Position numbers and translations under genes: made by a program
Part shown: one piece after another, positions 4,769 through 52,470 of the stretch
Layout of the letters: the number at the start of each line of letters is the position of its first letter
Position numbering within the stretch: the first letter of the stretch is position 1
NCBI GenBank assembly: GCA_944389495.1
Contig: CALXMN010000003.1
Span: forward strand, 10,862-74,861
Reading direction: 5' to 3'
Source: an uncultured Alphaproteobacteria bacterium
GTDB lineage: Bacteria > Pseudomonadota > Alphaproteobacteria > Rs-D84
Length of the DNA: 64,000 bases
Notes under the pieces: generated by a model
Databases searched by the model: none
The model's input: only the letters and a program-made list of their open reading frames with translations
Told to the model about the DNA's origin: nothing

Positions 4769-5194
4769 TTACATTAAACTTGAAAACGCTGCTGTCCGAA
4801 AAGATTCTGAGCTGGCGAATGAATACGCGCAATCATATGCACAGTCACTTGAACAGGTGCTGGCCGATCCGTATGAACCATTGTATAACCAGTAATATGA
4901 TACGGCTGGCCCAATCACTCTGCACCAACAATATTTATTGTTATTTAATGTGCCGCTAAGTTCCAACATATGTGCGGTTTCGCCGATGGTGCCGCCATTT
5001 TGGGATGAACATACGGCAATACCGGAAACATTGCGGCCACGGCACGAGTTTGCCCAATTATAACCACCGAGGCTTCCGTCATCTATCAGACAGGGTGTTT
5101 GTGGAATTTAAATGCATTGGGTAACGCCCTCGTTGGATGGTATTATATGCAGAATACATATTGCGGCGGTCGCGATTAGTATCTTGGATTTCAT
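4769..5194 (-). pseudogene. Family A secreted Cys-rich protein (copy 1), interrupted by one in-frame TAA at 5107-5109
   Basis: The reverse complement translates MKSKILIATAAICILHIIPSNEGVTQCI*IPQT...NNNKYCWCRVIGPAVSYYW...FRTAAFSSL. The stop replaces the Lys of the conserved VTKCVKL. RBS aggag precedes the ATG. Confidence 0.5.
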
Positions 5195-5300
5195 TTTTCT
5201 TATCTCCTGAGTTTCCTTATAAAAAACCACCAAATACATTGGTGGCCAGGAGATTCGAAACAATTACCAGAATTGTGTCACTTATTTGATATTCGTGACC
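5195..5300 (-). promoter_or_regulatory. Structured 5' leader of A copy 1: two hairpins, the second terminator-like (ccaccaatgtatttggtgg + T-tract) just before the RBS
   Basis: Same architecture as the leaders of A copies 3, 4 and 5. Confidence 0.4.
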
Positions 5301-5392
5301 CTCCTGACCAAAAAATCAGGAGTTTATTTATCGTCGTAATAAAAAACAACGCACACGCGCCGTTCAAATATCGACGCTGGTATTCGGGTTTC

Positions 5393-5423
5393 GACACCCC
5401 ATCAATGGAACACCCATTGACAA
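5393..5423. promoter_or_regulatory. Conserved palindromic upstream motif GACACCCCATCAATGGAACACCCATTGACAA (A copy 1)
   Basis: The same motif sits 150-230 bp upstream of A copies 3, 4 and 5. It has an internal inverted repeat, TCAATGG/CCATTGA. Confidence 0.45.
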
Positions 5424-5520
5424 TAATTATACTATCGCATTGCACAATTTAATGCAAGATGAAAAAGTCATAGTTCTTGATATGCTTATTATGTGTTTGC
5501 AAAGAAATTTGAAAACATAC

Positions 5521-5548: not shown

Positions 5549-7165
5549 TTACATCATTCCCGGCATACCGCCACCCATTTGTGGTGCGGGTTTTTCTTCG
5601 GGAATTTCAGACATAACCGCGCCCGTCGTTAACAATACGCCCGCGGTACTGGCCGCCGCCTGAATTGCGGTTTTAACGACCTTGGCCGGGTCAATAATTC
5701 CGGACTTCATCATATCGACATATTCGCCGGTTTGTGCATTATAACCAAAGTTATAATCTTTGGCCTCGGTTACTTTGCCAACAACAATTTCACCGGATAC
5801 GCCCGCATTTTCGGCAATTTGTGCGCACGGCGCAACCAGTGCACGTCGCACAATATCAATACCAACGTTTTGGTCGGCGTTTGTGCCGGTAAGTTTTTCC
5901 AATGCCGTTGTCGCACGAACCAGTGCGATACCACCACCTGCAACGATTCCTTCGGCCACGGCCGCGCGGGTTGCCGCCAACGCATCATCAACGCGATCTT
6001 TCTTTTCTTTAACTTCGACCTCGGTCATACCGCCGACCTTGATAACCGCGACGCCACCAACCAACTTTGCCAAACGTTCGGCCAATTTTTCGCGATCATA
6101 ATCACTGGTTGATGTTGACATCAGTTTACGTATTTCATCGGCGCGTGCATCGATTGCGGTCTTGTCGCCGCCGCCCTGGGCCACCAAAGTGGAATCTTTG
6201 GTAACGACTACTTTCTTTGCGCTGCCCAGTACGTCGGGTGTAATGTTTTCAAATGTCATACCCATATCATCTGATATAACTGTTGCACCGGTAACGGCGG
6301 CAATATCCTTTAACATTTCTTTGCGTCTGTCGCCAAAGCCCGGGGCCTTGACCGCACAAACCTTTAACCCACCGCGCAGTTTGTTCAGAACCAGTGTTGC
6401 CAACGCCTCGGATTCGACGTCTTCGGCGATAATCAGCAATGGACGTCCCGATTGTGCAATCGGTTCCAAAATCGGCAACAGTGCCTGAAGCCCGGTAATT
6501 TTCTTTTCAGAAACCAAGATTTGGGCCCCATCTAATTCAGCCAGCATTTTTTCGCTGTTGGTTACAAAGTATGGCGACATAAAGCCTTGGTCGAATTGCA
6601 TACCTTCAACGACATCAATTTCTGTTTCCAGACCTTTTGCCTCTTCAACGGTAATAACGCCTTCTTTTCCGACTTTTTCCATTGCATCCGCGATTTTTTG
6701 TCCGATATCGGCATCACTGTTTGCAGAAATTGTTGCGACCTGGGCGATTTCTGCGCTGTCCTTGACCGGGCGCGCGTGTTTTTCAATGTCTTTAACAACG
6801 GCGGCGGTTGCTAAATCAATTCCGCGTTTAACGTCCATAGGATTCATTCCTGCGGCAATAACACGTCGTCCTTCGCGAATAATTTTCTGTGCCAAAACGG
6901 TTGCGGTTGTTGTGCCGTCACCGGCGTCATCACCGGCCTTTTTTGCAACTTCTTGTACCATACGGGCGCCGATATTTTCCTGGGGGTCTTTCAGTGATAC
7001 GGCCTTGGCAACGGTAACACCATCCTTGGTGGCAACCGGTGCGCCGTATGATTTGTCAATTACGACCGTTCGACCCTTGGGGCCCATAGTAATTTTGACG
7101 GCATTGGCCAATTTATCAACGCCGGCCGCCAATTTATCTGTATCAAATACGATTTCTTTTGCCAT
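5549..7165 (-). CDS. groEL: Chaperonin GroEL (Hsp60)
   Basis: 538 aa. [10 protein letters not shown]...GGGMPGMM with the GGM-rich C-terminus. Canonical. Confidence 0.97.
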
Positions 7166-7183: not shown

Positions 7184-7471
7184 TTATTCCAAGATACCCA
7201 AAATGTCTGATTCTTTGACCAGTACATAATCTTTGCCATCGATTTTTACTTCATTTGCAGATGCGGCCCATTTTGCGAACAGAACGACATCACCGACCTT
7301 GACCGTCATAGGAACCCGGTCGTCGCCATCAAATGCGCCATCGCCAACGGCAATTACCCGCCCGTGCGAAGGTTTTTCTTTTGCATTATCGGGGATGATT
7401 ATTCCGCCGGCCGTTTTATTTTCTTCTTCGATACGTTCCAACAGAACATAGTTATGCAATGGTTTAAACAT
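7184..7471 (-). CDS. groES: Co-chaperonin GroES (Hsp10)
   Basis: 95 aa. [28 protein letters not shown]... Directly upstream of groEL. Confidence 0.95.
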
Positions 7472-7606
7472 ATTTATTTCTCCTTATGTCTAAATGCTTC
7501 TGGGTATGAATATAGTGCACGGGTATTTGATTTCAAGTGCTTGATTTTATATCACCAGTGTACTATGCTTACCCCAACGACACAATGGGAATCAAAGGGG
7601 CGATAT

Positions 7607-7954
7607 ATGTATGACAAGAATAACGTTTTTGCGAAAATAATTCGTGGCGAATTGCCGTCAAACAAAATTTATGAAGATGACTATGCCTTGGCATTCCAGA
7701 ATATTGCACCACGTGCCAAGACGCACGTTTTGGTCATTCCCAAGGGTGAATATACCGATGTTTATGATTTCACGGCAAATGCGCCCGTTGCGGCCCAGGT
7801 TGGTTTTTGGTCTGCGGTTCGCAAGACGGTTGATACATTGGGGTTGTCGCAAAATTTTCGTATGGTTGCGAATACCGGCCCCGGTGCGGGTCAAAGCGTT
7901 TTTCATTTTCACGTACATATTATGAGTGATGAACGATTCAAAACGGACTTTTAA
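7607..7954 (+). CDS. HIT-family (histidine triad) hydrolase
   Basis: Ends with the HIT motif HFHVHIM. The ATG at 7607 follows an RBS. The ORF-track start at 7364 is an extension. Confidence 0.8.
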   Translation: MYDKNNVFAKIIRGELPSNKIYEDDYALAFQNIAPRAKTHVLVIPKGEYTDVYDFTANAPVAAQVGFWSAVRKTVDTLGLSQNFRMVANTGPGAGQSVFHFHVHIMSDERFKTDF

Positions 7955-8159
7955 AATTCGTGTTATGCCGCGTGCGCGTCATAACAAGATAACTGTTGAC
8001 CAAAACGGTACGTTGCGCGTACATACAACGGCCGCCCCGGTTGATGGGGCGGCAAATGCGGCGGTAATAAAAATGCTGGCCGAATACTTTGATGTACCGA
8101 AAACCAGCATAGAAATTATTCGCGGTTCTGCTTCGCGGGACAAAGTAATTTGTGTTTAA
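7926..8159 (+). CDS. DUF167 (YggU-like) protein
   Basis: 77 aa. KIRVMPRARHNKI...GAANAAVIKMLAEYFDVPKTSIEIIRGSASRDK. Overlaps the HIT gene by ~28 bp. Confidence 0.55.
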   Translation: MMNDSKRTFKIRVMPRARHNKITVDQNGTLRVHTTAAPVDGAANAAVIKMLAEYFDVPKTSIEIIRGSASRDKVICV

Positions 8160-8707
8160 TAATCTTTTATCCTTTTTATTAAATCCGCTACTGTATTTGC
8201 GCCAAGAATGTTATAGTCGTGAATGCTTTCTATAAAACCGCACTTTTGCATATGAATAAACAGGCGTACAAACGGAATCCAAAAACCGGCCGTATTCAAA
8301 AAGAACAGGGGTTTTTTTGATTCACCAATTTGCTGCATTGTCATAATGTCCGTTAATTCGTTCAGTGTGCCTATCCCGCCCGGCAGTATAATAAATGCGT
8401 CCGATAATTCGAACATTTTTTGTTTACGGTCATTGACGCCTGTGACAATTTCCACCTGGACCCCGGTATGAACAGGCTCCTGTTTTTCAATAACATTGTT
8501 TGTGGAAACGCCGATAACCTTGCCCCCGGCATCCAATGCCGCCGTTGCCACCGTTCCCATCAGACCAACATCGCCACCACCAAATACCATACGAATATCA
8601 TTTTTTCCCAAAAATTCGCCAATTGATGCCGCATCAACTGCAAACTGGGGGTGTGTGCCGAATTGATGTCCACAATATACAGCAATAGATTTTAACTTAC
8701 CCGTCAT
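8156..8707 (-). CDS. LOG-family cytokinin riboside 5'-monophosphate phosphoribohydrolase-like protein
   Basis: PGGIGTLNEL and GGG..GLMG motifs. Confidence 0.8.
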   Translation of the reverse strand: MTGKLKSIAVYCGHQFGTHPQFAVDAASIGEFLGKNDIRMVFGGGDVGLMGTVATAALDAGGKVIGVSTNNVIEKQEPVHTGVQVEIVTGVNDRKQKMFELSDAFIILPGGIGTLNELTDIMTMQQIGESKKPLFFLNTAGFWIPFVRLFIHMQKCGFIESIHDYNILGANTVADLIKRIKDY

Positions 8708-8757
8708 AACTTCTTTTTCCTTTATTTTTGCGAATTATATCATAAAATGACGGTGTT

Positions 8758-9756
8758 ATGAATCAAAAGTTTTTGGATTTTATGCACAGGTATAAAGGAA
8801 TGCGTCTTGCCGTGGCGGTCAGTGGCGGGGTGGATTCTGTATGTCTGTTGTGTTGGTTGGCGCGTATGGGAATGGATATAACGTGCCTGCACGTGAACCA
8901 CGGGTTGCGCGCAAATGCAGAAACAGAAACCCAATATGTGCGCGATTTATGTAAAAAATTAAACGTGCCGTGCAAAATCTTTTATTGGACGGATACCAAA
9001 CCCGCCACCGGTATCGAGGCCGCCGCCCGCACCGCACGATATAAATTTATGACGAATTTTTGTCGCGAAAATAAAATGGATGCATTGCTTGTCGCGCACC
9101 AGGCCGATGATCAGATTGAAACATTTTTAATGAATCTGGGGCGGGGCAGTGGTTTGTATGGTTTGGCCGCGATGCGGCGCGTTTCATATCGCGATGGCGT
9201 TCAAATTGTTCGTCCATTATTGGATGTTTCGCGTGCCGAACTAAGGCGTTATTGCGATGATAATGGTATCAGGTATTTTATGGATGAAATGAACAGTGAT
9301 CCACACTATACCCGTGTTCGCATTCGTCAAAATCGTCATTTGTTATCAACAGAATTGGGCATCAGTGATGCACGTATTTTGTTGGCAATTAAAAATCTGG
9401 GACGTGTACGAGATGCGCTGGATTCTGAAATTGGTGAAATGGTATCATCGGTTATAAGTAATAATCGTGCGATGTTTTCAGATTCTTTTCTATTTGACCC
9501 GGCACCCGATGTTGGGTTAAAGTTGCTTGGGACATTGATTCAAAAAATTGGGGGGAATGAATATCAACCACGCTTGAATTCTTTATCAAGTGCACTAAGT
9601 AAATTGCAACACGATTGTAAATTTACATTGGGACATTGTACAATTCGACGTCTGGGCCCCAGAATTTTAATCGTGCCCGAAGGGTCAAAAACAAGTTTCA
9701 GGACAAGATATGGAAAATCAAAATCAAATTCAAAAAAATCAGAACAAGAAAAATAA
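8758..9756 (+). CDS. tilS: tRNA(Ile)-lysidine synthetase
   Basis: PP-loop SGGVDS motif. It sits immediately upstream of ftsH, the usual arrangement. Confidence 0.8.
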   Translation: MNQKFLDFMHRYKGMRLAVAVSGGVDSVCLLCWLARMGMDITCLHVNHGLRANAETETQYVRDLCKKLNVPCKIFYWTDTKPATGIEAAARTARYKFMTNFCRENKMDALLVAHQADDQIETFLMNLGRGSGLYGLAAMRRVSYRDGVQIVRPLLDVSRAELRRYCDDNGIRYFMDEMNSDPHYTRVRIRQNRHLLSTELGISDARILLAIKNLGRVRDALDSEIGEMVSSVISNNRAMFSDSFLFDPAPDVGLKLLGTLIQKIGGNEYQPRLNSLSSALSKLQHDCKFTLGHCTIRRLGPRILIVPEGSKTSFRTRYGKSKSNSKKSEQEK

Positions 9757-14410: not shown

Positions 14411-14519
14411 ATGCCGAATTTAAACGTCCGTTTTATCGGGCGTTTTTATTTTATAAAAAAATCCGATTTTCCGCACTTTTTGCTTTTATGTATATGCCGA
14501 AAAAAAACGGACGTTTGGA
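14411..14519. repeat. GCCGAA palindromic element (degenerate copy)
   Basis: ATGCCGAATTTAAACGTCCG...internal hairpin...ATGCCGAAAAAAAACGGACGTTTGGATTCGGC. Same architecture as the elements at 27885 and 49555. It lies directly upstream of A copy 2. Confidence 0.5.
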
Positions 14520-14545
14520 TTCGGCCAAAAATCAGGGGAAAAATA

Positions 14546-14953
14546 ATGGGTGTTTTAAAGACTTTGTTTTTGCTTGTAATCGCAATTACATTCTGCCAAC
14601 CGGCGTCTGCCGTTACCAAATGCGTAAAATTAAATTCATCAACAACGTGTTCCGATTATTCGGGCGCATTCGGTCAATCAAATTGGTCCGCGACATGCGG
14701 TGGCATATCAATACAGGGTGTTACATTTTGTGGTTCGCAAAACGGCGGTTCAGTTGGTGCAACAACCGACGCCGTTACGACCAGTTCAACCAATAAATAT
14801 TGTTGGTGTAAAATGGTATCACCTGCGGTGTCGCGCTGGGTTTTCGCCGGCGCGGATGATCATTGCGCGTACCGTTGCGCGGACGCCTGTGCGGGCTTCG
14901 CTCCGGCCACTGAGACTTTCCGGTCTGCGTTGTTCTCGGGTCTCGGCGATTGA
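14546..14953 (+). CDS. Family A secreted Cys-rich protein (copy 2)
   Basis: RBS aggggaaaaataATG. MGVLKTLFLLVIAITFCQPASAVTKCVKLNSS...NKYCWCKMVSPAVSRWVF...FRSALFSGLGD. Confidence 0.6.
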   Translation: MGVLKTLFLLVIAITFCQPASAVTKCVKLNSSTTCSDYSGAFGQSNWSATCGGISIQGVTFCGSQNGGSVGATTDAVTTSSTNKYCWCKMVSPAVSRWVFAGADDHCAYRCADACAGFAPATETFRSALFSGLGD

Positions 14954-15136
14954 TATATACGTAAATGCGTATGCGAATGCATACGCCGGTAACAGGTGGG
15001 GGTATGGGGGCGGATTCTCCGCCCCCGTGGAAAACAGATATGATAAAGGGGATTTATATAAAATAACGTAAGTTTTTTACATCAGGTTCCCAGCCACAAC
15101 TGGGAACAGGTTGCATCGCCGTATGCAGTCGTCGCA

Positions 15137-15270
15137 CGTCTTTCTCTGCGGTGTCGCGCTGGGTTTTCAACAACGCGAACACGTCGGCCGGTTCTTGCGC
15201 GAACAACGTTCAGAACAATGCGTCTTTCCGGTCCGCGTTGTTCTCGGGTCTCGGCTCCTTTGACAGGAAT
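15137..15270 (+). pseudogene. Promoter-less 3' fragment of a family A gene (candidate silent cassette)
   Basis: Two conserved boxes, ctgcggtgtcgcgctgggttttc and tttccggtc(c/t)gcgttgttctcgggtctcggc, are shared with the 3' end of A copy 2 at 14815-14950. They bracket a divergent ~80-bp segment encoding VSRWVFNNANTSAGSCANNVQNNASFRSALFSGLG. It has no start codon and no signal peptide. Confidence 0.5.
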
Positions 15271-15498
15271 ATACAGTTTGGCCAACCTGCGGGACGGGTG
15301 CAACAGCACCTTTCAGATGATATTCATCTGTTTTGCCTGTTATCCAAGGCGGGGTGGTGCGACCTTTTTGGACGCGTAAAACGCGGCCTTAAAAATACAA
15401 TGCGCAGGGGACGTCTGGGTTAGTAGTCGTATATGATATGAATATTATGTCTGTTGTGACAGAACGCCCGGGGCGTCCAATGGAATATCGGGGGGAAT

Positions 15499-15825
15499 AT
15501 GACATTGGATGAAATAAATAACCTGAATGGCAATATGTGCCCGAGATTTTCAACGTTTGCTAGGGATAAATTGCCAATGCCCGGCAAGAAAAAACGCCTT
15601 GACGAGATATTAAACCGCGAAATCATCGTGACTGATTTCAGAATTACTAAATCTAAAAAACGTGATGGAACAGATTGTCTGCGATTGCAATTTATTATTG
15701 ATGGTAATGTCTGTGTTGCTTTTACTGGCAGTGCTGTTTTATCAGACCAAATTCAATCGGCCAAAGATAACATACCTTTTCGTGGAACAATTGTAAAAAT
15801 AGACCGATATTACTCTTTCTCTTAA
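15499..15825 (+). CDS. Hypothetical protein (108 aa), inserted between A and B of cassette copy 2
   Basis: ORF only. No recognisable motif. Confidence 0.3.
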   Translation: MTLDEINNLNGNMCPRFSTFARDKLPMPGKKKRLDEILNREIIVTDFRITKSKKRDGTDCLRLQFIIDGNVCVAFTGSAVLSDQIQSAKDNIPFRGTIVKIDRYYSFS

Positions 15826-15847: not shown

Positions 15848-16126
15848 ATGAAATATTTTTATGTTTATCTGCTTTTATTAATACCATCAACTGTATATGC
15901 CGCCGAACCATCAACATCGTGCCCATCGGGTTATGTCGCAATAGAAGAAGAATATATGGATATTGCGGATGGTTCGTGCCCATCTGGATATACATCCGCC
16001 GGTACGGCGGACAGTTGTCTGATTTCGTCACCCGCCGGTTCATGCATAATGTACGCACCGGCAAATACAGAATACAGTGATGATGTCGGTGCGTATAAAT
16101 TTATCGTTGATTGCCCGATGGAATAA
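15848..16126 (+). CDS. Family B small secreted Cys-rich protein (copy 2)
   Basis: RBS caggggg. MKYFYVYLLLLIPSTVYAAEPSTSCPSGYVAIEEEYMDIADGSCPSGYTSAGTADSCLISSPAGSCIMYAPANTEYSDDVGAYKFIVDCPME. Confidence 0.6.
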   Translation: MKYFYVYLLLLIPSTVYAAEPSTSCPSGYVAIEEEYMDIADGSCPSGYTSAGTADSCLISSPAGSCIMYAPANTEYSDDVGAYKFIVDCPME

Positions 16127-16469
16127 ATGTTCGAACCCGTTTGAATGGGCATTTTTGTCGTGCAAATTTTATAAGTTCTATTTTGTTTGGTAAAATTCTT
16201 GTACTATACGGATGTGAATATGCTAAAAACGTGTGGAACTGCGGGTTTATTTCGGTGCACCCAGAAGTTTTCCCTTGGTGTCGGCTACGGGTGTCCTAGA
16301 TAGATATTCGAACGGCGCTTGTGCTTGTTCTTATATATTCGGATTCCCCTGCACGGCACGGTGTGTCGGCTGCGGCGTGGCCACAAGCGTGCCGATTTGC
16401 CGACACCGTCGTTTGGCAAATTTGCTTGTTGCCGCCCCCTTGGGTTCGGGTTCAAATTCTCTGGGATTG

Positions 16470-16507: not shown

Positions 16508-16584
16508 TGGCGCGCCCAGAAGGATTCGAACCCTCAACCTTCTGATCCGTAGTCAGATGCTCTATCCAATTGAGCCATGGGCGC
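16508..16584 (-). tRNA. tRNA-Arg (anticodon ACG)
   Basis: The reverse complement folds as a cloverleaf: GCGCCCA/TGGGCGC acceptor, anticodon loop CTACGGA, T-loop TTCGAAT, 3' CCA. Confidence 0.85.
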
Positions 16585-20634: not shown

Positions 20635-20722
20635 AATAAAAATATTATAAAAATAAATTTTATAAATTTTTATAAAAAAATAAGCATTACATTAATGTGC
20701 CATTGTGCGTTAATATACTTAT

Positions 20723-20750
20723 GTCAATGGGCGTTCCATTGATGGGGTGT
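20723..20750. promoter_or_regulatory. Conserved palindromic upstream motif (A copy 3): TGTCAATGGGCGTTCCATTGATGGGGTGT
   Basis: Same motif as at 5393, 27129 and 38208. Its orientation relative to the downstream A gene is constant. Confidence 0.45.
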
Positions 20751-20759
20751 GAAGACCTC

Positions 20760-20893
20760 TGCCTTAGCGTCGGAAAATAAGAAAACGTGCGGCGCGTGTA
20801 AATGCGCCGGTTTTAATATTCCGACGATAAATAAACTCCTGACCAACAATGTATTTGGTGGTTTTCTTATTCAGAAAAAACAGGAGTTTGAAA
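20760..20893 (+). promoter_or_regulatory. Structured 5' leader of A copy 3 with a hairpin before RBS caggag
   Basis: Contains ctcctgaccaacaatgtatttggtggttttc, related to the copy 1 leader. Confidence 0.35.
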
Positions 20894-21325
20894 ATGAAAT
20901 TAAAAATTTTGATTGCGGGCGTTGCGGTATTCTGTGTTATCGTTGCGCCGGCTGCGGCGGTTGTAAAGTGTGTAAAATTGACACAAAGTTCAACCTGTAC
21001 ATCAACAACTGCTAACAATTCTGGTCCAGAATGGACCGCAACCTGTGGTGGAACACCAATCAAAGGCATCGGTATTTGCAGCGATAAAAAAGGAAGTTCT
21101 GTCGGCTCAAAATCATCCAGTCTGACCATAGATTACTATACAGACTAAAATAAGTATTGTTGGTGTAAAATTATCAGTCCCGCCGTATCATCACAATGGA
21201 CATACGATGATTATAATTACACTTCGGGGGCTGATTGTGCGCGTGATTGTGCCTATGGCTGTGCCGCAGACATAGAAATAAATGCTGCGCTTCGTTCTTC
21301 GTTATTATATGGTTTTTCTGATTAA
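20894..21325 (+). pseudogene. Family A secreted Cys-rich protein (copy 3), interrupted by one in-frame TAA at 21146-21148
   Basis: MKLKILIAGVAVFCVIVAPAAAVVKCVKLTQSS...TIDYYTD*NKYCWCKIISPAVSSQW...AALRSSLLYGFSD. One frame throughout, with conserved motifs on both sides of the stop. Confidence 0.5.
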
Positions 21326-25839: not shown

Positions 25840-26235
25840 TCATTGCAAGGAAGGGCGCCCGGCAATCTTCTCTTGTCATTGCGAGCCACGTCAGTGGCGT
25901 GGCAATCCAGTAAATAAAAAAGCACTGCGGGCATCGCCCGCAGACATAATAAACCTGAATTGCTTCGTTTCACTCGCAATGACAATGTACTTATGCAGCC
26001 GTTGTTTCCTATAGTTGTACGACTTTTGTCTCCCCATTTGTCATTGCAAGGGAGGAGCACCCGGCAATCTTCTTTTGTCATTGCGAGCCACGTCAGTGGC
26101 GTGGCAATCCATAATACGGTATTTGCCACCGCAAATAAGTTTATAATAACTGGATCGCCACGGTCGTTACACTCCCTCGCGATGACAAGGGTTGGGGACA
26201 CGGGCGCCACCAGTGCGTCACGTTACGGGATGACG
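25840..26235. repeat. Array of MITE-like palindromic elements with terminal inverted repeats TTGTCATTGCGAG / CTCGCAATGACAA
   Basis: Several units, each with an internal hairpin (GCCACGTCAGTGGCGTGGC, CTGCGGGCATCGCCCGCAG). The array is reiterated at 36992-37300 and 52375-52470. Confidence 0.6.
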
Positions 26236-26238
26236 GAA

Positions 26239-26526
26239 TTATTCCAGTGGACAGGCCTGGTCAAATTCATATGTGCCGTATGTGTCTGTGTATTCTGTAT
26301 ATGCCGGTGCATACATAATGCACGCCCCAGACGGTGACGCCACCAAACAACTGTCCGCAGTGCCGACGGATGTGTATCCGGATGGGCACGAACCATCCGA
26401 TATTATTAAATATTCTTCTTCTATTGTTGCATAGTCCGACGGGCACGATGTTGACGGTGCGGCGGCAAATGATGCACACGGCACAATCGCCATAATTAAA
26501 ACCGATATTCGTTTCATATTCGCCAC
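26239..26526 (-). CDS. Family B small secreted Cys-rich protein (copy 4)
   Basis: MANMKRISVLIMAIVPCASFAAAPSTSCPSDYATIEEEYLIISDGSCPSGYTSVGTADSCLVASPSGACIMYAPAYTEYTDTYGTYEFDQACPLE. Confidence 0.6.
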   Translation of the reverse strand: MANMKRISVLIMAIVPCASFAAAPSTSCPSDYATIEEEYLIISDGSCPSGYTSVGTADSCLVASPSGACIMYAPAYTEYTDTYGTYEFDQACPLE

Positions 26527-26532
26527 CCCAAT

Positions 26533-26961
26533 TTAGTCAGACAGATTACTGAACATCGCGGACCGGAAAGACGCATTGTCCGCTGCGCGGTACGCACAGC
26601 TGTACGCGCAACGATAGCCACAATACGACGTCCCGAGGACGTTGTTGTACACCCAAGACGACACGGCCGGAGATACCATTTTGCACCAGCAATATTTGTC
26701 ATCAGTACCGCCACTAATTTCCAAAGCCGTCGCTGTCTGGCCAATTGAACTGCCACTTGTGCTGGAACATTGACTTATGCCCCTTATTGCGATACTTGTT
26801 CCACTGGTGGTACAATTTGATGTCCAGTCAACAACATTATACCCAGGCTCAACAAACGAACACGTTGTTGATGATGACAGTTTTACGCATTTTGTGACGG
26901 CCGCGGCCGGTGGGATTGTGGCCGCACAAATCAGACCCGCGATTAATATTTTTGATTTCAT
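26533..26961 (-). CDS. Family A secreted Cys-rich protein (copy 4)
   Basis: RBS aaggag. MKSKILIAGLICAATIPPAAAVTKCVKLSSSTTC...DDKYCWCKMVSPAVSSWVY...ASFRSAMFSNLSD. Confidence 0.6.
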   Translation of the reverse strand: MKSKILIAGLICAATIPPAAAVTKCVKLSSSTTCSFVEPGYNVVDWTSNCTTSGTSIAIRGISQCSSTSGSSIGQTATALEISGGTDDKYCWCKMVSPAVSSWVYNNVLGTSYCGYRCAYSCAYRAADNASFRSAMFSNLSD

Positions 26962-27078
26962 TGTGAACACTCCTTGTGTTTGGGTAAAACAAAAACCACC
27001 AAATTTAAGGTGGTTGGAGGTTCATAGCTATATCAGGTATAGTGTGCTTATTCTATATATTCGCAGCCCTCCAACCCG
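26962..27078 (-). promoter_or_regulatory. Conserved structured leader of A copy 4: long-range helix GGTTGGAGG/CCTCCAACC, then terminator-like hairpin CCACCTTAAATTTGGTGG + T-tract, then RBS
   Basis: About 100 nt, nearly identical to 38050-38165 upstream of A copy 5. Confidence 0.45.
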
Positions 27079-27128
27079 AAACAGTTGGAGCATTTTTACA
27101 TCTTGGTTTGATGCCTGAAAACGGGCTA

Positions 27129-27160
27129 TGACACCCCATCAATGGAACACCCATTGACAA
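27129..27160. promoter_or_regulatory. Conserved palindromic upstream motif (A copy 4): TGACACCCCATCAATGGAACACCCATTGACAA
   Basis: See 5393, 20723 and 38208. Confidence 0.45.
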
Positions 27161-27270
27161 CAGTTATTATAATCACAACAAAAATTCATTTGCAATATGA
27201 AAAATAAATCCTTTGATTTTAGTACGCGGTGCATATAAAATGTAAAACATAAATAAACAAGGAGTTGTCT

Positions 27271-32543: not shown

Positions 32544-33464
32544 ATGATGAACGAGTACGTTGTCGACTTTGTTAATTATTTGACACAGACGAAAAATTAT
32601 TCTGTGCATACGGCAACGTCGTATGAAATGGACATCTGCGACTTTATAAAGTTTTATAATAATTATATTGGCGCAGATGTTTCGTTATCGGACCTTGCGC
32701 GTGCCGATACAATTTGTTTTCGTGCGTGGTTGGCGGATCGGTCGCGTCGAAATTTGGCGCATAAGTCAACCGCGCGTGCATTATCGTCTTTACGCGGATT
32801 TTATAAATTCTTGGCCAAGCGTTACGGTGTGCAAAATAATGCAATTGGTTTAATTTCTTCGCCCAAGGTTCCGCGTAAATTATCCAAGGCCATCGATGTT
32901 GCCGATGTTAAACAGATGCACGATGCCATTCGTGAAATTGACGAACGTGAACCGTGGATTGCCGCGCGTGATTGGGCGTTGGTTTTATTGATGTTTGGAT
33001 GCGGCCTGCGCATATCCGAGGCATTATCTTTAAAAAATACAGATGTTCGCGGACGTCCCGATTCTTTGCGTATTTTGGGCAAAGGCGCCAAGGAACGAAT
33101 TGTTCCCGTATTGCCGGCCGTATTGGATGCGATTGAAAAATATATTGCTGTGCGTCCATTTGGCAATGCGCCCGAAGACAAGTTGTTTCGCAGTATCCGT
33201 GGTTTGCCTATGTCGCCGCGTATGGCCGAAAAAGTTATCGAAAAATTGCGCCATTATTTACAGTTGCCCGATTATGTAACCCCGCACGCGTTGCGTCATA
33301 CTTTTGCGACGGCTTTGTTGGCGGGTGGGGCGGATTTACGTAGCCTCCAGGAATTATTGGGGCATTCGTCTATATCCACGACCCAATTATATACGCGTGT
33401 AAATATGTCAGAAATAATGAATGTTTACGAACACGCCCACCCATTGGCCGATTCCGATGAATAA
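32544..33464 (+). CDS. xerD: Tyrosine recombinase XerC/XerD
   Basis: HALRHTFATALLAGGADLRSLQELLGHSSISTTQLYTRV, with catalytic R..HxxR..Y. Confidence 0.8.
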   Translation: MMNEYVVDFVNYLTQTKNYSVHTATSYEMDICDFIKFYNNYIGADVSLSDLARADTICFRAWLADRSRRNLAHKSTARALSSLRGFYKFLAKRYGVQNNAIGLISSPKVPRKLSKAIDVADVKQMHDAIREIDEREPWIAARDWALVLLMFGCGLRISEALSLKNTDVRGRPDSLRILGKGAKERIVPVLPAVLDAIEKYIAVRPFGNAPEDKLFRSIRGLPMSPRMAEKVIEKLRHYLQLPDYVTPHALRHTFATALLAGGADLRSLQELLGHSSISTTQLYTRVNMSEIMNVYEHAHPLADSDE

Positions 33465-36991: not shown

Positions 36992-37300
36992 GGATTCATT
37001 GCGAGCCACGTTAGTGGCGCGGCAATCCTGTAAATAAAAAAGTACCGCGGGCATCGCCCGCAGACATAATAAAACTGGATTGCTTCGTTTTACTCGCAAT
37101 GACAATGTACTTATGCAGCCGTTGTTTCCTATAGTTGTACAACTTTTGCCTTTCCTCTTGTTATTGCGAGCCACACAGTGGCGTGGCAATCCATAATACG
37201 GTATTTGCCGCCGCAAATAAGTTTATAATAACTGGATCGCCACGGTCGTTACACTCCCTCGCGATGACAAGGGTGGGGGACACTGGCACCACCAGTGCGT
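36992..37300. repeat. MITE-like TTGTCATTGCGAG-type palindromic element array, part of the segmental duplication
   Basis: Homologous to 25869-26235, with point differences. Some differences are compensatory within hairpins. Confidence 0.6.
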
Positions 37301-37320
37301 CACGTTACGGGATGACGGAA

Positions 37321-37608
37321 TTATTCCAGCGGACAGGCCTGGTCAAATTCATATGTGCCGTATGTGTCTGTGTATTCTGTATATGCCGGTGCATACATAA
37401 TGTACGAACCCGCGGGTGACGAAATCAGACAACTGGTTGCAGTGCCGGCGGATGTGTAACCCGATGGGCACGAACCATCCGCAATATCCATATGTTCTTC
37501 CACCACCGTGACATATCCCGATGGACACGAAGTGGACGGCGCGGCGGCAAATGATGCACACGGCACAATCGCCATAATTAAAACCGATATTCGTTTCATA
37601 TTCGCCAC
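37321..37608 (-). CDS. Family B small secreted Cys-rich protein (copy 5)
   Basis: MANMKRISVLIMAIVPCASFAAAPSTSCPSGYVTVVEEHMDIADGSCPSGYTSAGTATSCLISSPAGSYIMYAPAYTEYTDTYGTYEFDQACPLE. Confidence 0.6.
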   Translation of the reverse strand: MANMKRISVLIMAIVPCASFAAAPSTSCPSGYVTVVEEHMDIADGSCPSGYTSAGTATSCLISSPAGSYIMYAPAYTEYTDTYGTYEFDQACPLE

Positions 37609-37614
37609 TCCAAT

Positions 37615-38040
37615 TTAGTCAGACAGATTACTGAACAACGCGGACCGTGTTGTTTCATTGGCACGGATAATGCTAGCACAATAATTACTACAAGAAGAGC
37701 AAGTCATAGCAGCGGAAACAGGGCCATTTATTACACCAAAGTATACCCATTGCGATACTGCGGGACTAATCATTCTGCACCAACAATACTCATTTGAATC
37801 AATTGAAGAAGCCATAGATAATGAAGTTGCCGTTGCGCCAAGGTCTTCGCCTTTTTGGTTGCTACAAAATGAAACGCCGCTGACAGACACGCCATTACAA
37901 GTCATAGACCAATCTGACCCTTTGCCGGAAACGTTTGAACACGTTGTTGATGACGTTAATTTTACGCATTTGGTAACGGCAAACGCCGGTGGGATTGTGG
38001 CCGCGCACAGCAGGCCGGCAATTAATAAATATTTTTTCAT
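37615..38040 (-). CDS. Family A secreted Cys-rich protein (copy 5)
   Basis: RBS aggagg. MKKYLLIAGLLCAATIPPAFAVTKCVKLTSSTTC...NEYCWCRMISPAVSQWVY...TTRSALFSNLSD. The ORF-track N-terminal extension is spurious. Confidence 0.6.
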   Translation of the reverse strand: MKKYLLIAGLLCAATIPPAFAVTKCVKLTSSTTCSNVSGKGSDWSMTCNGVSVSGVSFCSNQKGEDLGATATSLSMASSIDSNEYCWCRMISPAVSQWVYFGVINGPVSAAMTCSSCSNYCASIIRANETTRSALFSNLSD

Positions 38041-38049
38041 TCTAAACCT

Positions 38050-38165
38050 CCTTGTTTTCATTGCGAATGAAAAAACCACCAAATTTAAGGTGGTTGGAGG
38101 TTCATAGCTATATCAGGTATAGTGTGCTTATTCTATATATTCGCAACCCTCCAACCCGAAAGTGG
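38050..38165 (-). promoter_or_regulatory. Conserved structured leader of A copy 5
   Basis: Near-identical to 26962-27078. Confidence 0.45.
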
Positions 38166-38207
38166 AGGTGATTTTTTATGTCATCTCTGACAATTACAAA
38201 GGGCTAC

Positions 38208-38237
38208 TACACCCCATCAGTGAATACCCACTGACGG
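38208..38237. promoter_or_regulatory. Conserved palindromic upstream motif, variant TACACCCCATCAGTGAATACCCACTGACGG (A copy 5)
   Basis: The inverted repeat changes from CAATGG/CCATTG to CAGTG/CACTG. The palindrome is kept. Confidence 0.45.
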
Positions 38238-38366
38238 TTATTATAATATCGTGTTATGTTTATTAATGCAAGGGGTTAATACTTATACCCGACGTTCACG
38301 ATTACCGCCGAACCACCCCACAAATCATATACGTTGGAATAAAAACGCCGCCCATTTGGGCGGAAT

Positions 38367-39080
38367 TTATCGTTGTTTTATATCCTCTATTGGAATTATT
38401 GCGGCCGGTGTTGGACCCATTTGTCCGTTATAGTGACTGGCGCGGTTTTCATTATATGGTATTCTGTCGCCAATAAATTGTTCGTAATAAATCTGGCCTA
38501 TACGCATATTGGGATATACGACCGTCGGATACAGCACACGTATTTCCAATGTCCATTGACCACAGAATCCATCATCACCACGGCCGGCCGTATGATGATT
38601 TAATATAAAGTTACGTCCCACAGATGATTTACCATCAATATATGGGAACAGGTTATATGTTTCTGTATATTCCATCGTATGTCCCAGATAGCCAACATCA
38701 GGCGATAAAATTAATCCGCCACTTGGAATTTCCAGATCCTGTGTTTCGTGCAATTTTTCATCGCACGGATCCAACAAGTATTTTGGGTTTCGTGGGTCGT
38801 ACTTTTCTGGATGTCGGTAAAAATCCAGGTATGCCCCATAATCTGTAAACCAATCACGCATAGAATACTTTTGACCACGTTTGTATTCGATTGCCGGTCG
38901 CATACCATACGGCAATGTGTGTTTGTAAATCTTTAATTGATTGCCCAGATGCAGGTCATAACTGTTGCTGCCCAAACATTTTTCATCAAATGGTTCAATA
39001 ATAATATCAGGCTTGTGTTCGGGGTTGGACATATTCGGCGTATGCATACGACGTAAAATTTCAGGACCAGTTAATTGCAT
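38367..39080 (-). CDS. dcd: dCTP deaminase family protein (2'-deoxycytidine 5'-triphosphate deaminase-like, long form)
   Basis: KSSVGRNFILNHHTAGRGDDGFCGQWTLEI matches the dCTP deaminase/dUTPase-fold signature. RBS aaagga before MQLTGPEIL. Confidence 0.7.
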   Translation of the reverse strand: MQLTGPEILRRMHTPNMSNPEHKPDIIIEPFDEKCLGSNSYDLHLGNQLKIYKHTLPYGMRPAIEYKRGQKYSMRDWFTDYGAYLDFYRHPEKYDPRNPKYLLDPCDEKLHETQDLEIPSGGLILSPDVGYLGHTMEYTETYNLFPYIDGKSSVGRNFILNHHTAGRGDDGFCGQWTLEIRVLYPTVVYPNMRIGQIYYEQFIGDRIPYNENRASHYNGQMGPTPAAIIPIEDIKQR

Positions 39081-39185
39081 AAAAAATCCTTTATACGGCT
39101 GCCTCTCCGTGCTGGATTTTACAATACCATTTAATGTTTGCAAGATTTTTATTCACTTTTGCAATTGGTGTGCTATGGTTGCGGT

Positions 39186-40078
39186 ATGACAAATACATAT
39201 TCTGGATTTATTGCAATCGTTGGTCCGACTAATGCGGGTAAAAGTACCCTGATTAACCAAATTATGGGACGCAAGGTATCAATTGTATCGCACAAGGTGC
39301 AAACCACACGCACAAATCTGCGCGCGGTAAAAATGGTTGGCAATCGCCAGTTGATATTTGTTGATACCCCCGGAATTTTTCGTCCGTCGCGTCGTTTGGA
39401 TCGTGCTATGGTTGGGGCGGCAATGGATGCGACTGGTGACGCAGACGCCGTATTGTTGGTTATTGATGCGCAAAAGGGTATAACCGATACAGTGCGCGTG
39501 TTGGTTGAAAAAATCCGCAACCATAAAAATTTGTTTGTTGCATTGAACAAGGTTGATGCTGTATCCAAGCCTGATTTATTGCCAATAACCGCCGAAATAA
39601 ATGAATTGGCGCATCCGCGTGATATATTTATGATTTCTGCGTTAAAGAACGACGGTGTGGATGAAATGTTGCGTGCCTTGGCGGACGTTATGCCAGCCGG
39701 CCCGTATTTGTTTGAAGCGCACGACGCAACGGATGTACCGGATAATTTATATTTATCGGAATTAACACGGGAAAAGATTTATAAATATATTCACCAAGAA
39801 TTGCCTTATCATATAAATGTGGTGACTGAACGTGTTGATGTTGCGGATGACGGCGTTTTGGAAATATATCAAAAAATCGCTGTACGCAGTGATGCGCATA
39901 AAAAGATTGTAATCGGACGCGCGGGTACGCAATTAAAGAAAATCGGAACCGCCGCCCGCCACGATATTCAAGACCAGTGGGGGGTAAATGCGCGCCTGCA
40001 TTTGTTTGTGCGTGTTGAACCGAATTGGGAAGATACGGCTGAAAATTATGAAGACCAGGGGCTGGAATTTAAAAAATA

Positions 40079-40079
<1 letters not shown>
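39186..40079 (+). CDS. era: GTPase Era
   Basis: GPTNAGKSTL (G1), DTPG (G3), NKVD (G4) and a C-terminal KH domain. Start at MTNTYSGF. Confidence 0.9.
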
Positions 40080-42239
<2,160 letters not shown>

Positions 42240-44005: not shown

Positions 44006-44082
44006 GCGAGCGTAGCTCAGTTGGCTAGAGCGCAACCTTGCCAAGGTTGAGGTCGAGGGTTCGAGCCCCTTTGCTCGCACCA
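44006..44082 (+). tRNA. tRNA-Gly (anticodon GCC)
   Basis: GCGAGCG acceptor, D-loop AGTTGGCTA, anticodon loop TTGCCAA, T-loop TTCGAGC, 3' ACCA. Confidence 0.85.
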
Positions 44083-44300
44083 AAGTTTTGTAAAAATCCG
44101 CCGAATGGTGGATTTTTTTGTTGCTATTTTAATGCAAAGGGGCTCGAACCCGCAGGGTTGCGAGGCGAGCCGCAGGCGAAGTACTTTGCTCGCACCAAAG
44201 TTTTATAAAAATCCGCCGAATGGTGGATTTTTTTGTTGCTATTTTAATGCAAAGGGGCTCGAACCCGCAGGGGGTATGTCACACAACGTAAATCCTGTGC
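44083..44300 (+). repeat. Tandem ~110-bp duplication downstream of tRNA-Gly, containing tRNA 3'-end-like fragments
   Basis: Two near-identical units (aagttttgtaaaaatccgccgaatggtggatttttttgttgctattttaatgcaaaggggctcgaacccgcagg...) and a third partial unit. Each carries a terminator hairpin and a GGGGCTCGAACCCGCAGG T-arm-like segment. One also has ...tttgctcgcacca. Confidence 0.55.
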
Positions 44301-44572: not shown

Positions 44573-44592
44573 TATAAAAAAGGATGGTCTAT

Positions 44593-45681
44593 ATGAAAAA
44601 ACTAGCACTATTAACTTCTGTATTGGCTTTGGCCGCGTGTGGTGGGGGTTCCGGCGGCGGTTCTAATGGCGGCGTTCCGGGCACTGTTCCCGGTGGCGAT
44701 GTTCCTGGTACAAATCCGCCCCAGGCCGGCAATGTCGATAAAATAACATCTTTGTTGCCGGAAATCACGGTTGATGGCCCAGATGGACAAAAAACTTATA
44801 CTTTAGAAGATGTAAAATTTTTTGACCCTTCCATAGGTTCAGAAGAAGGTTACTTGACATTCGGGCTTGATGACAATGGTGAAATAGACAGCATAAAAAT
44901 TATGGCTGGTGACACAATAGCAGGAAATGCCACCCGTGGTGATAATGGTTTGTTTAGTCTGACCACAGGCTTTAAATACAAAGTGTCGGGTATCGAAGGG
45001 GGCCAGGATTATTATACGACCGATATTATGTTGCCTGGGGATTATACCACAGAAGCCATCATTAATGCGTTCGAATCTGTGTGGGCGGACAAGGTCAGTC
45101 CAGAAATTATGGACGCAATCAAAGCAAAGGTCGCCAATAACGACATAGAACGCGAAGAAATCGATTATGACTTAGCCGTTGAGTTATACGGTAAAAGTGT
45201 CGGATTAAAATATTCTGACTTTGGGTACAATACAATGTCGTCACCAGACGACCCAAATGATAGTTCGGCTATGTTCGGCGGATACGAGGTTAAAAGAATC
45301 GATAATCCGGTGTTCACAGACAAAATGACCTTTACCGGCAAGGCGATTGCCGCATTGTCCCGGAATGGTAAAAATGCCGAAAAAATAATCGCAACCGATG
45401 ATAATGCGACAACATTGAACTTTGACAATGGCAAGGCAACGTTAACTATGCCGTTCAATGATTGGTATTCCATCATTGTCGAAAATCCAAACAGTCAAAA
45501 ATATATGTTTCGCTATGATGGCGAAACAAAAATTGGCTATGACCTGAATGGCATAGACAACGCCAATATAAATGTTATTTATTATGGCGACAACAACGCC
45601 CCGACCGAGGCCGTTGGTGGCATAAGCTTTGACAACAATGGGGTCGAATTCAAAGGCGCCTTTGGCGTGGCGAAAAAATAA
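44593..45681 (+). CDS. Lipoprotein with Gly/Ser-rich linker. Hypothetical surface protein.
   Basis: Lipobox LALAAC followed by GGGSGGGSNGG. About 360 aa. No recognised domain. Confidence 0.45.
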   Translation: MKKLALLTSVLALAACGGGSGGGSNGGVPGTVPGGDVPGTNPPQAGNVDKITSLLPEITVDGPDGQKTYTLEDVKFFDPSIGSEEGYLTFGLDDNGEIDSIKIMAGDTIAGNATRGDNGLFSLTTGFKYKVSGIEGGQDYYTTDIMLPGDYTTEAIINAFESVWADKVSPEIMDAIKAKVANNDIEREEIDYDLAVELYGKSVGLKYSDFGYNTMSSPDDPNDSSAMFGGYEVKRIDNPVFTDKMTFTGKAIAALSRNGKNAEKIIATDDNATTLNFDNGKATLTMPFNDWYSIIVENPNSQKYMFRYDGETKIGYDLNGIDNANINVIYYGDNNAPTEAVGGISFDNNGVEFKGAFGVAKK

Positions 45682-52374: not shown

Positions 52375-52470
52375 GCCCCCATCTTTGTCATTGCGAGGGG
52401 GGGGCAGCCGGCATTTTCTCTTGTCATTGCGAGCCATCGCAGATGGCGTGGCAATCCAGTTGTCTGATTC
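52375..52470. repeat. MITE-like TTGTCATTGCGAG elements (two units) between the two B 3' fragments
   Basis: ttgtcattgcgagggg... and ttgtcattgcgagccatcgcagatggcgtggcaatcc, the second with hairpin GCCATC-GCA-GATGGC. Confidence 0.55.

Follow-up and report, generated by a model that had tools for sequence, protein, structure and literature searches.

Probable relic of a diversity-generating retroelement beside a gene for a hypervariable, cysteine-rich secreted protein in a gut alphaproteobacterium

The 64-kb stretch of DNA analyzed here (hereafter the window) is part of contig CALXMN010000003.1 of an uncultured alphaproteobacterium (assembly GCA_944389495.1), and it contains a small secreted protein gene, A2, that is followed by a fragment repeating its 3' end. 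The question raised by this locus is what purpose is served by a partial copy of a gene that has the same conserved boxes as the gene but a different sequence between them. An earlier note on this DNA had proposed a silent donor cassette for segmental gene conversion, of the kind found in Neisseria pilS, Borrelia vls, and Anaplasma msp2. Our analysis indicates instead that the fragment is in all likelihood the template repeat (TR) of a diversity-generating retroelement (DGR), that the 3' end of A2 is its variable repeat (VR), and that the reverse transcriptase (RT) gene has been lost from the window, leaving what is most likely the relic of a decaying DGR. The features on which this reading turns are as follows.

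14546 to 14953, plus strand: target gene A2, encoding a 135-amino acid (aa) secreted Cys-rich family A protein; an open reading frame (ORF) with a signal-peptide-like N-terminus and with the VR at its 3' end.
14823 to 14947, plus strand: VR, consisting of box 1, a 71-nt diversified core (14846 to 14916) and box 2; homologous to 15146 to 15255.
15146 to 15255, plus strand: TR, consisting of adenine-free box 1 (15146 to 15168), an A-rich core (15169 to 15219), and an adenine-free 3' stretch (15220 to 15255).

Box 1 (CTGCGGTGTCGCGCTGGGTTTTC) is found exactly twice in the window, at 14823 to 14845 and 15146 to 15168, and the two copies are identical at 23/23 positions, without a mismatch. Box 2 is likewise present exactly twice (14917 to 14947 and 15225 to 15255, 30/31 identical), and neither box was matched in 100 dinucleotide-preserving shuffles, which confirms the repetition described in the earlier note. 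The core between the boxes differs in sequence, as that note had also claimed, and in length, 71 nt in the gene versus 56 nt in the fragment. Read in frame, the fragment encodes ...AVSRWVFNNANTSAGSCANNVQNNASFRSALFSGLG, and its core reads NNANTSAGSCANNVQNNAS. Homology starts 192 nt after the A2 stop codon at 14953, close to the spacing of about 180 bp given previously, and although the homology does lie within the originally assigned 15137 to 15270, its extent is slightly narrower. A tblastn search with A2 found no other family A fragment in the window. The fragment has no ATG start codon and no signal peptide; a mechanically predicted GTG ORF (15151 to 15423) overlaps it, and gene callers placed no gene at this position in any related contig. 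A small real gene over the fragment, either this ORF or one at 15082 to 15309 on the minus strand, was considered and rejected: there is no ribosome binding site (RBS) and no ATG, and it is never called. The description therefore holds: the fragment repeats the 3' end of A2, lacks a promoter, and is non-coding.

The distribution of adenines within the fragment is highly uneven, with none in the boxes and 16 in the 51-nt TR core (15169 to 15219), nearly all of them within its eight AAC/AAT codons. In a manual codon alignment of the window TR and VR, which also contains indels of 9 nt and 24 nt, 11/13 adenines of the TR are mismatched versus 11/94 non-adenine positions (p=1.4e-7), and all six codons opposite AAY retain a third-position pyrimidine (6/6). 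The same bias is seen in related loci: 9/23 adenines versus 2/97 other positions are mismatched in L007, 14/28 versus 2/104 in the equal-length repeat pair of L015, and 20/28 versus 0/104 in L062 (p=1e-17). Because the mismatches concentrate on the adenines of the fragment, we identify the fragment as the TR and the 3' end of A2, up to 6 nt short of the stop codon, as the VR; adenine-targeted TR/VR mismatch is the defining signature of DGRs (PMC5758913).

The variation present across family A follows the same template. A profile built from the paralogues retrieved 728 homologues of about 140 aa, 0 of which have a Pfam domain, and the hosts are gut Alphaproteobacteria/Candidatus Enterousia, based on one named match among those listed and on the genome loci. 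Genome sizes of approximately 0.75 to 1.0 Mb are given for these bacteria (PMC12306168). The first 105 residues of the proteins are very conserved and lead into ...KYCWCKMVSPAVSxWVF. About 27 hypervariable aa come next, and FRSALFSGLSD forms the C-terminus; judged by this alignment, the two boxes are the framework motifs that flank the hypervariable segment. Three to four cysteines are found in the segment in all 77 of the top 120 homologues whose segment could be parsed (77/77), and 89/120 fit a 27-aa CxxxCxxxC register. When 89 homologues were placed on the framework of the fragment, with its lost CANN unit restored, the column entropy was 3.21 bits at TR-Asn positions versus 1.11 bits at other columns. 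Lys, Glu, Gln, Met, and Trp cannot be reached from AAY codons if only adenines change, and in the same 89 proteins these residues make up 1.5% at the TR-Asn columns versus 15.6% in the N-terminal part. Opposite CAG, 70/89 sequences have Gln or Arg.

A degenerate TR pattern was used to scan metagenome contigs, and the matches, mostly unrelated, were filtered by tblastn. This identified L062, a human-gut contig of 225 kb that shares synteny with the window, with the M23 peptidase gene on the left (77% identity) and the tRNA-Arg side on the right. The corresponding features of the window are listed here.

15499 to 15825, plus strand: ORF for a 108-aa basic protein (pI 9.3), a candidate DGR accessory factor with a predicted oligonucleotide-binding (OB)/single-stranded DNA-binding (SSB)-like fold, not Avd.
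15848 to 16126, plus strand: family B gene for a secreted, Cys-rich protein of 92 aa; A genes usually have such a gene downstream.
16127 to 16340, no strand assigned: site without an RT gene, where L062 has a gene for a 358-aa RT and about 1 kb more (reverse complement 7343 to 9485).
16508 to 16584, minus strand: tRNA-Arg(ACG), the right-hand synteny anchor.

The gene order of L062 is M23 peptidase, about 3.6 kb of sequence, A with its VR, TR, 108-aa ORF, B, RT, and the tRNA-Arg side. Its TR is intact at 132 nt (NNDNGSASNCANNCANNCANNAANNAS), and L015 has an equal-length intact version; L015 and L062 have one TR in common and different VRs. The RT is a 358-aa ORF with the motifs IGNLTSQ and YCDD, scoring 37.1 bits against Pfam RVT_1 (gathering threshold 29.6), and among solved structures it is closest, across its full length, to 8ub7_A ('Reverse transcriptase', E=1.6e-41), which, given its length of 328 aa, is probably the Bordetella phage DGR enzyme; a literature search on 8UB7 found no paper. 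RT homologues with 44 to 62% identity adjoin TR-like repeats in eleven other metagenome loci. The order B-RT-tRNA-Arg is also found in L137 and L138, where the RT is 74% identical, and the order B-RT in L140. In the assembled VR of L062 (reverse complement 6008 to 6140), a 1-nt insertion frameshifts the target gene, which could be a consensus artifact of a hypervariable population or a real frameshift.

A homologue of the 108-aa ORF abuts the start of the RT gene in at least ten loci (L045, L048, L056, L065, L075, L088, L097, L101, L106, and L125), including nine of the eleven with an RT beside a TR-like repeat, and the window and L062 versions are 94% identical. This linkage bears on whether the fragment was ever a template. 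It might instead be an inert pseudogene fragment, produced when a family A gene was rearranged or partially duplicated in tandem: rearrangements do leave pieces of A genes, for example a 5' remnant in L003 to L005 described below, two of the window's five A copies have become pseudogenes, and the fragment has internal deletions. Such an origin, however, leaves unexplained the coincidence of the family's hypervariable positions with the Asn codons of the fragment, the adenine-specific mismatches, the adenine-free flanks, and the TR-108-aa-RT linkage in many loci, and we consider it extremely improbable.

The silent donor cassette of the earlier note was right in one respect, in that the fragment is a non-coding copy built to donate to the variable segment of A2. 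The mechanism and the family of systems to which it was assigned, RecA-type segmental gene conversion into A2 as in pilS, vls, or msp2, do not fit: the template is single and made of Asn codons, the differences are specific to adenines, and a DGR RT and accessory gene accompany the same repeat in relatives. The geometry, a promoter-less 3' fragment enclosed in boxes beside an expressed copy, would suit gene conversion, as would the exchange of sequence among A-family loci (the exact A2 allele lies behind the 5' remnant of another A gene in L003 to L005) and the 87 to 91% identity of A2 outside the VR between strains with 99.5% identical flanks. Against this, there is one fragment and no array, and 22 genome loci from Enterousia-like metagenome-assembled genomes (MAGs) showed no such fragment next to their family A genes. 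The variable positions of the fragment are nearly all Asn codons, not alternative real sequence, and copying the fragment into A2 would delete two invariant cysteines. Expressed variants carrying the cassette core were absent from all 8 locus alleles and 120 homologues, the differences being scattered substitutions at A positions and not tract replacements. We therefore regard gene conversion from the fragment as very improbable.

While the DGR reading accounts for the origin of the fragment, the element in the window is an incomplete DGR, as there is no RT beside the TR, though one is present in L062, L137, L138, and L140. Between the end of B (16126) and the start of homology to the right flank of L062 (from 16341), there are 214 nt in the window versus 2.15 kb, including the RT gene, in L062. 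No RT was found in the 64-kb window by motif scan (YxDD, IGxxxSQ), by Pfam scans of 29 ORFs, or by tblastn with the L062 RT (best E=2.2); the sole recombinase found by the scans is a XerC/D-like integrase at 32544 to 33464. All contigs of the window's species that extend beyond B likewise lack the RT there. There is no RT on record with 75 to 99% identity to that of L062, and the exact 108-aa protein of the window is found on 8 contigs.

The TR has also been shortened. The intact TR core is 80 nt long with three CANN units; the TR of L007 has lost one 12-nt unit (68 nt), and those of L006 and the window have each lost a second, different 12-nt unit (56 nt, thus 24 nt shorter), so that the shortened alleles represent nested 12-nt deletions. 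Only one of the three invariant cysteines is retained in the window TR, and its 56-nt core is mismatched in length with the 71-nt core of its own VR. The VRs of L006 and L007 are still 80 nt, and therefore no homing has occurred since the TR deletions. The window and L002 to L005, the latter from four further samples in two cohorts, have one and the same VR, which differs by one codon in L010 to L012; ongoing hypervariation of the window-type VR was not seen across contigs of different samples. The donor proposed in the earlier note is thus probably not in use in this genome (RT absent, TR truncated and length-mismatched, VR static across samples), and the element is probably inactive here, a judgment qualified by the 64 kb in view and by the intact accessory ORF.

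The decay may have followed more than one path. In 22 Enterousia-like MAG loci, no RT or TR was found within 10 kb of family A genes, except for a truncated RT in L031 (10001 to 11080; Ca. Enterousia intestinigallinarum, DVJI01000003.1). There, an A-B pair is directly followed by only the first 118 codons of the RT, which are 92% identical to the L062 RT, and the locus has neither a TR nor the 108-aa ORF. To judge from its gene content, L031 looks like an independent, complementary route of DGR decay.

Several observations weigh against this reading. The accessory ORF is intact and 98 to 100% identical among strains without the RT, which could reflect continued use or too little time to decay. 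VR alleles differ between strains with approximately 99.5% identical flanks, indicating recent diversification or allele exchange. The window VR differs from the TR at 11 non-A positions and by two indels, and so was not copied cleanly from the TR as it now stands. The A2 structure prediction (AF2 pLDDT 38) does not demonstrate either of the folds typical of DGR targets, C-type lectin and Ig. Finally, the view covers 64 kb of a genome of about 0.9 Mb, and a trans-acting RT is possible. The last point can be developed into an explanation in which the TR is still active, with the RT supplied in trans from elsewhere in the genome or from a phage, and the RT-less module is a working remote template and target. 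The conserved accessory ORF, the restricted portion of the genome in view, and the fact that the VR alleles of near-identical strains differ largely at TR-adenine positions all agree with this, and avd, TR, and brt can be plasmid-supplied in trans (Wu et al. 2018, PMC5758913). It is opposed by the unequal TR and VR cores, by the occurrence of the shortened single-Cys core in 0 of the top 120 family members, by the VR shared between the window and four other samples, by the lack of any recorded RT in the 75 to 99% identity range when the exact 108-aa protein is on 8 contigs, and by the missing RT after B in all contigs of the species that extend that far, and we consider a trans-supplied RT unlikely.

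Returning to the DGR relic, the working form in relatives would operate as follows. The TR is proposed to be transcribed and copied to complementary DNA (cDNA) by the DGR RT, probably with the 108-aa OB-fold protein, misincorporating opposite template adenines, and the cDNA would then replace the VR (mutagenic retrohoming). The adenine-free boxes would keep intact the homology on which priming and integration depend, and the recipient would be marked by the GC-rich end and the hairpin after the VR. As a result, about 12 Asn-templated positions would be randomized on the fixed scaffold xxAxTSAGxCAxxCAxxCAxxAQxxAS of a small secreted protein. In the lineage of the window, deletion would have removed the RT gene between B and tRNA-Arg; two 12-nt CANN units have since disappeared from the TR, and the VR would have been left frozen. 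Elements flanking the two repeats are relevant to this scheme.

14917 to 14947, plus strand: VR 3' end (box 2) resembling an initiation of mutagenic homing (IMH) site, adenine-free, with the GC-rich end CTCGGGTCTCGGC; 30/31 identical to 15225 to 15255.
14967 to 14986, plus strand: inverted repeat GCGTATGC-GAAT-GCATACGC, with an 8-bp stem and a 4-nt loop, 19 nt downstream of the VR.
15006 to 15026, plus strand: second GC-rich hairpin, GGGGGCGGA-TTC-TCCGCCCCC, from a DNA fold of 14940 to 15035.
15256 to 15498, plus strand: conserved non-coding stretch from the TR to the 108-aa ORF, 91 to 100% identical across strains and 85% identical to L062.

The TR/VR homology stops sharply at exactly 14947/15255. 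The sequence of the first hairpin is 100% conserved across all strains, and both hairpins are obtained in the DNA fold of 14940 to 15035, with z = -3.7 and 0/200 shuffles folding as well. Both follow the VR only, no such hairpin being found downstream of the TR, and an exact 24-nt pattern taken from the spacer hairpin had no match in the genome contigs. A GC-rich inverted repeat downstream of the IMH is a DGR trait (PMC5758913), to which the predicted hairpins after the VR appear to correspond. The conserved stretch at 15256 to 15498 may be the 3' part of the TR transcript. With Rfam at gathering thresholds, only three tRNAs were found in the whole window; the search at a permissive E-value covered the leader region at 37950 to 38350, treated below.

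The 108-aa protein departs from familiar arrangements of this kind of element. Its confidently predicted fold is OB/SSB-like, and none of its 86 homologues is named. Avd is a 128-aa helical barrel. No Pfam match to Avd or HRDC was found at the locus, and the 108-aa protein is not Avd, nor is it HRDC, MSL, or CH1 by the descriptions given in PMC5758913; avd is likewise absent from many of the DGRs catalogued there. Based on position and conservation, it is likely to be a DGR accessory factor. DGRs are well known, and an OB-fold accessory together with a new target family could constitute a new variant, if undescribed. We put forward only tentatively the fuller proposal that this is an undescribed DGR variant of gut Alphaproteobacteria (Enterousia and relatives), in which a basic SSB-like OB-fold accessory lies between TR and RT instead of Avd, the targets are a new multi-copy family of Cys-rich secreted proteins of about 140 aa (CxxxCxxxC, always paired with B) not recognizable as C-type lectin or Ig, and the RT-less module of the window is perhaps serviced in trans.

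Family A is represented by five full-length copies in the window, at 14546 to 14953 (plus), 26535 to 26961 (minus), 37617 to 38040 (minus), 20894 to 21325 (plus), and 4771 to 5194 (minus). The last two contain one in-frame TAA stop each, at 21146 and 5110, respectively; an alternative genetic code was rejected as an explanation, since table 11 leaves the housekeeping ORFs uninterrupted and TAA is the stop codon in both cases. Intact homologues of these two pseudogenes with nearly the same variable segment exist elsewhere (P0003, P0033). A family B gene (92 to 95 aa, secreted, Cys-rich) lies downstream of all five A genes (5/5) and in most of the MAG loci examined, and at the A2 locus the TR and the 108-aa ORF are inserted between A and B. 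Family A, gene B, and the 108-aa protein have no match in Pfam, NCBIfam, or PHROGs, and the AF2 model of A2 (pLDDT 37.9, pTM 0.27) is unusable for judging a C-type lectin or Ig fold. When the VR of the paralogue at 26535 to 26961 was compared with the L062-type TR, 14/27 adenines versus 6/90 other positions were mismatched; its 3' end (…FSNLSD) no longer matches the IMH-like end of the TR, and this paralogue may be a former remote target.

Recombination among A loci constitutes a second source of variation, independent of the fragment. In L003, the leader of the RecA/MFS locus is followed by the exact A2 protein; in L004 and L005, that protein follows the leader of the locus at window 38011 to 40850. 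An identical 5' remnant from another A gene, MKKHLLITGLIYRANFVLNK*, precedes it in all three cases. The displaced allele carries about 150 nt of its upstream region (L003 3650 to 3900, L004 2820 to 3080, and L005 1 to 290, compared with window 14492 and 38011). L004 and L005 consist of the reverse complement of window 38011 to 40850, 158 nt, and the window sequence from 14492, an arrangement that, on sequence grounds, would be consistent with inversion or recombination between oppositely oriented A loci. Between strains with a 99.5% identical M23 peptidase gene, the non-VR part of A2 (14546 to 14822) is 87 to 91% identical and B (15848 to 16126) 88 to 97% identical. These differences are patchy, for example SDYSGAFGQ versus SSNSGEFGQ, and cannot be explained by the TR; their pattern appears to point to paralogue gene conversion or diversifying selection.

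Other features of the A loci were observed. The A-B loci at 25876 to 27098 and 36996 to 38178, both on the minus strand and about 11.08 kb apart, form a segmental duplication with 79 to 93% identical blocks. Upstream of four of the five A genes, A2 being the exception, there is a conserved, apparently structured leader of about 200 nt (38020 to 38260, 26940 to 27185, and 5185 to 5440 on the minus strand, 20640 to 20900 on the plus strand; also L015 40 to 285 and L003 3430 to 3650). It consists of a hairpin CAATGG..CCATTG, GGGGTGT, a CTCCAAC/GGTTGGAGGG helix, and a terminator-like CCACC..GGTGGTTTTTT just before the RBS, and the CTCCAAC/GGTTGGAGGG helix has compensatory changes in the 4771 to 5194 copy. 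The leader is a candidate riboswitch or attenuator; the region 37950 to 38350 had no Rfam match (E<=1). A palindromic repeat, ...TGTCATTGCGAGCCACGTCAGTGGCGTGGCAATCC..., is found in intergenic positions near A/B loci, at 25849 to 25909, 26051 to 26111, and 52397 to 52457.

A 3.3-kb block located between the M23 peptidase and A2 genes in L001, L002, and L006 is absent from the window at 14492 to 14525. It contains three genes, for proteins of 218 aa, 643 aa (DUF4254 and a weak match to GT9), and 94 aa. The junction lies within one of two copies of the hairpin motif GCCGAA...TTCGGC, which suggests deletion between short repeats. Elsewhere in the window, within 44006 to 44272, tRNA-Gly(GCC) is followed by two 89-nt direct repeats (44069 to 44157 and 44184 to 44272), 99% identical and 115 nt apart, that overlap the 3' end of the tRNA gene, and then by a 365-aa ORF (44584 to 45681) without a Pfam match. 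These repeats may be an att-like duplication from an integrated element.

With the DGR, a hypothesis of antigenic variation by gene conversion is replaced by a specific and testable mechanism. Taken together, the loci show natural stages of DGR decay in a gut symbiont with a reduced genome: in L062 both the TR and the RT are intact, in L007, L006, and the window the RT is lost and the TR is shortened by stepwise 12-nt deletions, and in L031 the TR is lost and the RT truncated. The OB-fold protein beside the RT is a candidate non-Avd accessory factor that can be tested biochemically. Families A and B, present five times within these 64 kb (the genome is about 0.9 Mb), represent a diversified surface or secreted repertoire of Candidatus Enterousia and are a likely interface of this uncultured organism with its host, phage, or neighbors. 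When genomes are scanned, boxes around a variable core, adenine-free and adenine-rich, respectively, should be read as a TR even if no RT is in view.

The prototype diversity-generating retroelement is that of Bordetella phage BPP-1 (mtd-avd-TR-brt). As in BPP-1, the target ORF ends in the VR, a non-coding TR built on the same framework lies nearby, the mismatches are mainly at TR adenines and AAC codons template the variable residues (PMC5758913), a GC-rich IMH-like end is present with an inverted repeat downstream of the VR only, and the RT of the relative L062 has the IGxxxSQ and YxDD motifs and 8ub7_A as its best solved homologue. In contrast to BPP-1, there is no Avd here, and a 108-aa OB/SSB-like protein is encoded between TR and RT; the element lies on the chromosome of a gut alphaproteobacterium with a reduced genome and not in a phage; the target is a Cys-rich secreted protein of 135 to 140 aa with a CxxxCxxxC scaffold and no demonstrable C-type lectin fold; and in the window the RT is deleted and the TR truncated. 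DGRs without Avd (Architecture A, TR-RT only, and the Lineage 3/CH1-containing elements of Bacteroides) resemble the present element in their TR-RT core lacking avd, their alternative small accessory ORFs, and their occurrence in gut bacteria (Wu et al. 2018, PMC5758913). CH1, however, is an acidic protein of 160 to 169 aa (pI about 4.7) and MSL is MutS-like (PMC5758913), whereas the protein described here is 108 aa, basic (pI 9.3), and of predicted OB fold; this comparison covered CH1 and MSL. As in the DGRs of Treponema denticola and Legionella, where one TR can serve several paralogous targets, the VR of the paralogue at 26535 to 26961 shows adenine bias, but its 3' end does not match the IMH-like end of the TR and the window has no RT. 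The Neisseria pilE/pilS, Borrelia vlsE/vls, and Anaplasma msp2 systems resemble this locus in that an expressed gene is accompanied by a partial copy with conserved flanks and no promoter, and in the one-way flow of information to a variable segment. They differ in that faithful recombination draws on arrays of cassettes of authentic alternative sequence, whereas here there is a single Asn-rich template and the changes correspond to adenine-specific RT errors.

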